DNA of 64,000 nucleotides. It comes from Roseivirga sp. GTDB taxonomy: Bacteria; Bacteroidota; Bacteroidia; Cytophagales; Cyclobacteriaceae. The position numbers and the translations under genes were made by a program. The stretch lies in the NCBI GenBank assembly GCA_965277585.1, contig OZ255828.1:1653865-1717864 (forward strand). Direction: 5' to 3'. This document shows positions 34,097 to 34,126 of the stretch, in pieces (positions within the stretch are counted from its first letter, which is position 1; each line of letters opens with the position of its first letter). Under the pieces are notes generated by a model, which was not told the DNA's origin, did no database searches, and was given only the letters and a program-made list of their open reading frames with translations.

Positions 34097-34126
34097 GTAT
34101 CTCCCGATTGAGATATCGGGAGATAC
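34097..34126. promoter_or_regulatory. 12-bp-arm perfect palindrome overlapping the rtcB translation start region
   Basis: GTATCTCCCGAT-tgagat-ATCGGGAGATAC. The same CTCCCGAT/ATCGGGAG core occurs at 30626-30645 inside the tRNA-like array, and a half-site is at 30106-30113. Confidence 0.45.

Follow-up and report, generated by a model that had tools for sequence, protein, structure and literature searches.

Stem-loops lying between the cistrons of bacterial polycistronic mRNAs set differential stability and processing of the segments that they separate; the repetitive extragenic palindromic (REP) hairpin between malE and malF of E. coli and the hairpins of the Rhodobacter puf operon are examples. 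The element considered here is a palindrome in the spacer between a small open reading frame (ORF) and rtcB, in a 64,000-nt stretch of Roseivirga sp. contig OZ255828.1 (this whole stretch is referred to as the window; coordinates without a locus label are those of the window). In common with the intercistronic stem-loops just mentioned, it is a stable coding-strand stem located between cistrons and lacking a U-tract, its structure is kept while its sequence drifts, and it has counterparts at every junction of its operon. It differs from the REP hairpins in that the stems of the window do not constitute a genome-wide family and, within 64 kb, are found in this operon only. A role in stability or processing is proposed here.

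The operon itself is of a described type. The locus matches the predicted Band-7-associated tRNA/RtcB RNA-repair system of Burroughs & Aravind 2016, as summarised in bioRxiv 10.1101/312249: it has an rtcB gene, a Band-7 gene in the cluster and adjoining tRNA-like RNA genes, all on one strand. The description summarised there covers the genes and the tRNA-like RNA, and not hairpins at gene junctions. The locus is distinguished by a tRNA-like array of multiple units (some of them with large loop insertions) and by the intercalation of genes for a TPR protein and a 168-aa protein, and of the small, phage-related ORF.

A second point of comparison is provided by the Rsr (Ro60)/YrlA/RtcB operons, with RtcR, of Salmonella and E. 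coli, in which RtcB also adjoins a tRNA-mimicking non-coding RNA; a weak YrlA-like match is found in the window. The operon stretch checked for genes (26.9-37.2 kb) is without Ro60/TROVE, RtcR or a sigma-54 activator, the YrlA match is far under its gathering score, and regulation by a CARF-domain activator cannot apply to the operon of the window.

The palindrome at the rtcB junction

The interpretation that we favor, and to which we give about an even chance, is that the junction palindrome is an intercistronic RNA stem-loop selected for its structure, with a probable role in processing or stability, and that its sequence is drawn from a rapidly changing set of palindromic modules. The element is:

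34097-34126, + strand: rtcB-junction palindrome, with a 12-bp stem, a 6-nt loop (TGAGAT) and no T-run after it

Its arms, GTATCTCCCGAT (34097-34108) and ATCGGGAGATAC (34115-34126), are 100% complementary on either side of the spacer tgagat, as reported in the preliminary description of this DNA. The palindrome sits in a 66-nt spacer that runs from the TAA of the small ORF (34081-34083) to the rtcB ATG at 34150, and occupies positions -53 to -24 relative to that ATG. The TTG given as the rtcB start in the ORF list (34108) does fall within the palindrome, and the first ATG does follow 23 nt after it, both as originally noted. An overlap with the region of translation start had also been proposed, but the conserved RtcB N-terminus (M-G/A-x-RKLTDKDLKKLGY, shared by all relatives) begins at ATG 34150, so that the palindrome is an element of the spacer and does not lie over the start codon. 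Because it ends 23 nt before the ATG, the hairpin does not cover the ribosome-binding region either.

As RNA, the junction hairpin has a folding energy of -25.9 kcal/mol (z = -4.45), and none of 200 shuffles is equally stable. Its reading as an intrinsic terminator is rejected: the tail ATTATCATAAAC is without a T-run, and the terminator scan, which calls two terminators in the operon leader (29805-29834 and 29996-30029), is silent at the junction.

The same-strand, closely spaced genes are suggestive of a single operon RNA transcribed from the + strand. The palindrome would be transcribed within this polycistronic RNA, together with the tRNA-like array and the coding sequences of the Band-7 protein, the 168-aa protein, the TPR protein, the small ORF and RtcB, and the transcript would fold as a 12-bp stem-loop between the small ORF and rtcB, as one of four such junction hairpins of the operon. 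(The data show the position of the element, its structure and turnover, the compensatory change and the lack of sequence conservation; transcription as one RNA, the role in processing or stability and the mechanism of copying are what we infer.) The stem-loop would be retained for its structure rather than its sequence. Most likely it would serve in processing or stability, by blocking 3'-exonucleases or by offering a site to an endonuclease, and the level of rtcB mRNA would thereby become independent of that of the upstream segment. The core that it has in common with a D-loop of the tRNA-like array would reflect common origin, through short palindromic modules copied and exchanged inside the operon, rather than a conserved binding site, and the D-loop copy is itself a member of a widely dispersed family of 18-nt palindromes.

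Junctions in related genomes

Loci of relatives are designated L001 and so forth. The closest genomes are those of other Roseivirga, with RtcB identities of 84% (L001) and 72% (L003); the comparison set of RtcB loci comprises 80 genome loci (1.02 Mb altogether), and the junction can be evaluated in 11 relatives that possess the small ORF and the identical gene order. These 11 junctions hold a hairpin of other sequence with a stem of at least 9 bp (seven relatives), a larger structured insert (two) or nothing (two). Junctions referred to individually are:

L081: ATCTCcCGGTG-gat-CACCGtGGGAT; nearest relative, small ORF 99% identical
L001: CCTCGGAGTCA...TGACTCTGAGG
L089: TTCCTCAGAGTC...GACTCTGAGGAA
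L082: CCCTCAGAG...CTCTGAGGG
L088: CTCAGAaCCG...CGGcTCTGAG
L185: AGCCTCAGCAG...CTGTTGGGGCT
L083: structured spacer of 290 nt
L184: structured spacer of 200 nt
L084 and L085: spacers of 24-25 nt without a hairpin

Flanking genes of the window and L081 are ~95% identical, the hairpin ~70%. On the sense strand the stem differs by one A-T to G-C double change, one T-A pair turned into T.G, and one broken pair; it appears to be retained by compensatory change, and the 8-mer ATCGGGAG of the core is lost. The junction element is, as far as these alignments indicate, loosely conserved, and conserved in structure rather than sequence. The recurrence at this junction of a hairpin of some kind, with unrelated sequences, suggests selection for structure. 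The absence of any hairpin from L084 and L085 means, on the other hand, that the junction element is dispensable. L002 and L003 do not have the small ORF; their TPR gene is directly followed by rtcB, with no hairpin in between.

A survey of the 95-nt regions 5' of rtcB at 76 RtcB orthologue loci identifies a stem-loop at this position as common and generic in the clade: 46% of the regions fold with z < -2, and a stem of at least 9 bp is present in 29%, compared with 9% for random windows. The regions have no sequence in common.

The 8-mer ATCGGGAG is found at none of the 11 junctions and at the rtcB start of none of the 80 genome loci. Lack of conservation at rtcB orthologues had been named beforehand as an outcome that would speak against a site shared by rtcB and the tRNA-like units, and this is the outcome obtained. 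Enrichment of the motif near RNA-repair genes, which had been suggested as a further check, is not seen either (23 hits in the 1.02 Mb of RtcB loci against ~31 expected). Matches in L004 and L005 were set aside; they lie in apparent coding sequence and look like chance.

Two other kinds of structured RNA occur around rtcB in relatives. A structured repeat of ~150 nt, which is absent from the window, fills the spacer between small ORF and rtcB in L083 (6241-6393) and is present twice in L001, inside a tRNA-like unit (3409-3561) and 3' of rtcB (10910-11067). At L012 (~6900-7000) and L019 (~1400-1497) a tRNA-like T-arm, GGTTCGAATCC, lies immediately 5' of rtcB; in these lineages, which represent more distant RtcB loci, a tRNA-like RNA takes the position of the hairpin.

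The core in common with the tRNA-like array

The tRNA-like array consists of five Rfam tRNA matches at 30211-31006 and a weaker unit at 30095-30182. Two of its units contain sequence of the common core:

30614-30720, + strand: tRNA-like unit B (Rfam tRNA, 43.2 bits), in which the D-loop is enlarged by a 23-nt insertion and the anticodon loop by a 20-nt hairpin insertion
30623-30648, + strand: D-loop palindrome GCTCTCCCGATAG/CTATCGGGAGCGC; its inner part, 30627-30644, is the exact 18-mer TCCCGATAGCTATCGGGA
30107-30114, + strand: half-site ATCGGGAG, belonging to tRNA-like unit A (30095-30182) and placed in its D-loop region

The 23-nt D-loop insertion of unit B is the palindrome, and the core common with the rtcB junction, CTCCCGATAG/CTATCGGGAG, is at 30626-30645, exactly where it had been described. 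A half-site had been described as well; it is indeed present in unit A, but its end coordinate had been off by 2 (CATCGGGAGC covers 30106-30115).

Within the 64 kb the 8-mer ATCGGGAG is found at three places only, all of them in the operon, and makes 5 strand hits against 1.43 expected, a number reached by 3 of 100 shuffles. A search of the window for perfect inverted repeats (arms of 10 nt or more, loops of 12 nt or fewer) yields just five, two of which carry the common core. An 8-mer in common with an arm of an array inverted repeat is found for 61 of 62,630 random 12-mers of the window (~0.001). The palindrome and the common core are both real, and pure chance is unlikely. The possibility that these are nonetheless two unrelated hairpins which happen to have an 8-9-mer in common was weighed for three reasons: 13% of random window 12-mers have an 8-mer in common with some array position; many features were inspected in the preliminary description, so that a chance match somewhere is likely; and TCTCCCGAT stems arise independently in phage terminators. 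The match to an inverted-repeat arm (p ~0.001), the small number of perfect inverted repeats of such size, and the existence of a second stem family with the same array-and-junction distribution in relatives speak against coincidence, which we judge distinctly improbable.

A second interpretation, which develops that of the preliminary description, takes the CTCCCGAT/ATCGGGAG hairpin to be a recognition module for one RNA- or DNA-binding factor (the Band-7, TPR or small protein might be considered) that would couple expression of the ligase to its cofactor RNAs. The nearest analogies for such reuse of one stem in variable contexts are boxB/nut of phage λ and the MS2 operator. The non-randomness of the common core is in its favor, as is the finding that in a second stem family (type B, below) sequence is kept across positions and genomes beyond what pairing demands, despite variation of the loop; arrays from several genera contain the TCCCGAT stem again (twice in L083, and in L012); and the operon type, as summarised in bioRxiv 10.1101/312249, is predicted to use tRNA-like RNAs with RtcB.

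Against this stands, first, the distribution of the motif, which is lost at rtcB in L081 and absent from all other orthologues. Second, copies in the array and at the junction do not co-occur in these relatives: L083 has the 18-mer in its array without a matching rtcB hairpin, and L001 has an rtcB hairpin while its orthologues of units A and B have ordinary D-loops. Only the window has both, in comparison with L083 and L001 (the L081 contig is without the array). Third, the junction hairpin is missing altogether from L084 and L085. Fourth, the 18-mer is mostly found in contexts outside RNA repair. Fifth, the small protein has no recognisable nucleic-acid-binding domain. In addition, and in contrast to the λ and MS2 cases, sequence is not conserved at the rtcB site. 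A single factor acting on one site in both tRNA-like units and rtcB is, in consequence of the missing conservation and co-occurrence, an unlikely explanation. As to the functional link between ligase and RNAs that had been drawn from it, a functional association of rtcB with tRNA-like RNAs is to be expected of this operon type; a specific shared, conserved site is not supported.

The array also contains the YrlA-like match referred to above. This match (Y RNA-like; 30888-30992; 38.5 bits against a gathering score of 69) covers two adjacent tRNA-like units in the layout T-arm, acceptor-like hairpin CTCCCTTTTAAGGAG, D-arm, which resembles the permuted tRNA-like module of YrlA.

A dispersed 18-nt palindrome

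The 18-mer at the heart of the D-loop palindrome has a distribution of its own. Exact copies of TCCCGATAGCTATCGGGA occur in 46 stretches of viral contigs (L090-L135), where a control of identical composition but with swapped arms gives 1. They also occur in the window (30627-30644), in L083 (3519-3536), where another tRNA-like unit has one in its D-loop, in a tRNA-like minihelix in L011, a Chitinophaga locus (625-642), and in frame in a UbiD-like ORF in L022 (725-742). Copies have sharp boundaries, are mostly intergenic, and in some phage contigs are multiple. Several cap longer hairpins or terminators (for example in L109, L114, L116 and L134), and at least one lies in the D-loop of a phage tRNA (L093/L113); most viral copies have ordinary phage genes beside them and no tRNA nearby. 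Near-copies with symmetric double changes also exist. No transposase, nuclease or other gene is commonly linked to the element, the clusters being those of related phages with portal and Clp protease genes; no Rfam family covers its contexts, and a literature search by sequence gave no match. The 18-mer is perhaps a small palindromic element, dispersed among Bacteroidota and their phages, that has so far gone undescribed.

In being sharply bounded, multi-copy and placed in varied contexts, TCCCGATAGCTATCGGGA is comparable with REP/BIME, the Correia elements of Neisseria, the palindromic elements of Rickettsia (which insert in frame) and HIP1 of cyanobacteria. It is much shorter than these dispersed repeats, and is without a transposase, a common neighbouring gene, an Rfam family or a literature match. 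Commonness of the motif throughout the genome had also been put forward as a test of the shared site. The 18-mer core is indeed widespread outside RNA-repair loci; the 8-mer, within the window, is confined to the operon.

The relationship of the junction palindrome to this element is less direct. The D-loop site (30627-30644) has the defining 18-mer with its AGCT centre. The junction, TCCCGATtG-ag-atATCGGGA when aligned to the 18-mer halves, has 7 nt identical in each arm and matches 8 of 9 nt in each half-site, with a centre, TGAGAT instead of AGCT, that is 2 nt longer. No further copies with a TGAGAT centre were found in the viral-contig search.

The junction palindrome might be thought of as a neutral or selfish insert: a decayed copy of TCCCGATAGCTATCGGGA that landed on a short stem already in place (GTATC/GATAC), at its tip, and is functionless for rtcB. 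In favor of this are the 8/9 match to each 9-nt half, the capping of longer hairpins and terminators by several other copies, the existence of near-copies with symmetric changes, and the lack of the hairpin in L084 and L085. The compensatory change that appears to hold the pairing in L081 argues otherwise, as does the presence in most relatives of a junction hairpin of unrelated sequence, which suggests selection for structure. The TGAGAT loop is, moreover, found in 0 of 37 viral TCTCCCGAT...ATCGGGAGA hairpins (unrelated phage terminators), and there is thus no sign that the junction variant is mobile. We regard a functionless insert as rather unlikely. (The TCTCCCGAT...ATCGGGAGA hairpin was considered as a dispersed element in its own right and rejected; the 37 viral matches are for the most part phage terminators that form a few related groups and have different loops.)

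Stem-loops of the operon and apparent exchange of stem families

The rtcB junction is not singular in its operon. There is a stem-loop at each gene junction (tRNA-like array, Band-7, TPR, small ORF, RtcB), and none of these is followed by a T-run of the kind that is present after the leader terminators. Besides the junction palindrome they include:

32603-32626, + strand: stem-loop after the Band-7 gene; 3 of 10 pairs changed on both sides (six relatives), with sense-strand G.U
33698-33730, + strand: stem-loop after the TPR gene; conserved loop GGGTCGCAG, 4 of 10 pairs compensatory
33730-33761, + strand: type-B stem-loop GGCTCAGAGTC/GATTCTGAGCC in the TPR/small-ORF spacer; one sense-strand G.U
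35569-35595, + strand: stem-loop with a perfect 11-bp stem, GTGGAATTCGA/TCGAATTCCAC, spanning the rtcB stop codon; L081 retains it, with a T.G pair

Some stems of the operon belong to families. The type-B family, CCTCAGAGTC/GACTCTGAGG, provides the hairpin of the small-ORF/rtcB junction in L001 (6929-6958), L082 (2916-2947) and L089 (3559-3592), and a variant of it in L088; it is found in array spacers of L083 (2693-2724) and L088 (2950-2979 and 3095-3123), and in the window it occupies the TPR/small-ORF spacer. The third family, CCTGCCTGCSGCAGGCAGG, is found as a hairpin in arrays only, three times in the window (30052-30070, 30143-30161 and 30667-30685) and once in L085 (3166-3184), with a degenerate version in L089 (473-491). 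In the window one such insertion precedes unit A, another is in a variable loop and another in an anticodon loop; in L001 part of the motif is inserted in a different unit, disrupting the T-arm. The full CCTGCCTGCSGCAGGCAGG hairpin is found nowhere else in the 64-kb window, and the 8-mer CCTGCCTG alone gives a few scattered single hits. Within a stem family the stem sequence is kept and loops vary from 4 to 14 nt.

The paired-hairpin families are restricted to the interval from array to rtcB. For the individual 8-mers, the A type is found in the operon only, the B type has one extra, single and non-palindromic hit at 7148, and the C type has five scattered single hits in the window. REP-like status as a genome-wide repeat thus does not apply within the 64 kb, paired hairpin forms being confined to the operon. 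The type-B stem was also considered as a dispersed element and rejected, most of its viral matches representing one unrelated repeat family; a type C stem occurs in 6 viral stretches only.

Since stem families are found at both kinds of position, the RNA array and the mRNA spacers of the operon appear to have exchanged copies of hairpin modules. Such copying could reflect a common binding partner, or just local copying by gene conversion or template switching. A version of the former would have the modules (of the TCCCGAT, CCTCAGAGTC and CCTGCCTGC types) serve as reusable recognition tags for an RNA-binding component encoded in the operon, be it the Band-7, the TPR or the small protein. The same tag on a tRNA-like RNA and the rtcB leader would then tie expression or localisation of the ligase to its cofactor RNAs, and rapid swapping of tags between positions would explain the missing positional conservation. 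We consider this quite unlikely.

The loops and pairs of these families also bear on the proposal that the junction palindrome is a DNA operator, a 12-6-12 site at which a dimeric transcription factor would control an rtcB promoter. Perfect dyad symmetry and a position at -53 to -24 relative to the ATG are what such an operator might have. Loop lengths of 4-14 nt within a stem family fit a hairpin and not a dimer operator of fixed spacing, and between the junction and the D-loop palindrome the spacing of half-sites already differs by 2 bp. The G.U pairs on the sense strand of related hairpins suit an RNA element rather than a DNA site. Profile searches identify no transcription-factor gene in the operon, the scan finds no promoter-like site in the small-ORF/rtcB spacer, and inspection by eye finds no TTTG/TAnnTTTG element of the Bacteroidetes type there. 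With sequence not conserved in orthologues either, an operator is very improbable.

The interpretation as an intercistronic stem-loop selected for structure has its own difficulties. Co-transcription of the operon, and any processing of its RNA, are presumed; L084 and L085 manage without any hairpin at this junction; and the compensatory evidence at the junction comes from one close sequence pair, the window and L081. The 8-9-mer core in common with the D-loop (p ~0.001-0.01) is left unexplained by structure alone, and calls for the added assumption of local copying. Finally, random windows in the 76-locus survey are mostly coding, so that the enrichment of stems upstream of rtcB may partly be due to terminators of upstream genes.

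The operon and its genes

The remaining features of the locus are:

29805-30034, + strand: leader with two canonical terminators (terminator scan)
30095-31006, + strand: tRNA and tRNA-like array (b7a-tRNA-like), Rfam tRNA matches; syntenic with L001, 78% identical
31451-32551, + strand: gene of the SPFH/Band-7 protein that defines the operon type (Pfam Band_7, 1.3e-33)
32641-33147, + strand: gene of the 168-aa protein (ORF list)
33132-33689, + strand: gene of the TPR protein (profile match)
33856-34083, + strand: conserved small ORF, 75 aa from ATG 33856; 55 homologues, 12 invariant columns
34150-35583, + strand: rtcB (Pfam RtcB, 8.9e-80), starting at ATG 34150 and not at TTG 34108
35654-36601, + strand: gene of a transglutaminase-like protein (profile match)
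36634-37212, + strand: gene of a tyrosine-phosphatase-family protein (Y_phosphatase3, 1.3e-22; profile match)

The last two genes may belong to the operon. The transglutaminase-like gene is retained 3' of rtcB in L082 and L083. Linkage to Band-7 extends to relatives: of the 80 genome loci, 13 have a Band-7 gene that adjoins rtcB or is close to it, and one more has a weak match (28%).

The operon leader (29805-30034) is strongly conserved in L001, L083 and L088; Rfam matches to it are weak and below threshold. A hairpin at 29970-30001 extends into the 5' arm of the second leader terminator (29996-30029), in a layout like that of an attenuator or riboswitch. A further conserved leader, of ~70 nt, precedes the small ORF (~33790-33855); its nested pairings, CAGGYAG...CTGCCTG and CCGWCTGATG...CATCAGNCGG, are kept in L001, L081, L082 and L089.

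The small ORF between the TPR gene and rtcB is confined to a Roseivirga subclade. Its protein is PHROG 20427 (function not annotated) and is modelled by AlphaFold2 with a pLDDT of 93; it has no Pfam match and no PDB fold match at E <= 0.001, and neither search yields a recognisable nucleic-acid-binding domain. A nucleic-acid-binding role was considered for it and finds no support in the Pfam, PHROG and AlphaFold2/PDB comparisons. Members of this 75-aa family are also present in phage-like contigs, next to an IS605 OrfB/TnpB-like gene in L086 (6001-6234), and amid RNase T-like, RNase H-like and Csx3-like genes in L087 (6001-6222).

Implications

The Band-7/tRNA-like/RtcB operon is a predicted RNA-repair system. 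If the junction hairpin were a recognition site shared with the array, it would offer a first way into the coupling of ligase and tRNA-like RNAs. The evidence opposes the shared-site view, and the hairpin is therefore unsuitable as evidence for such coupling; it is better regarded as an ordinary, dispensable and rapidly changing junction stem-loop. Two by-products emerge: in operons of this type a few hairpin modules appear to be swapped to and fro between array and mRNA spacers, and one of these modules is an apparently undescribed 18-nt palindrome that is spread across phage contigs and other Bacteroidota loci. Both may outweigh the original finding in usefulness.

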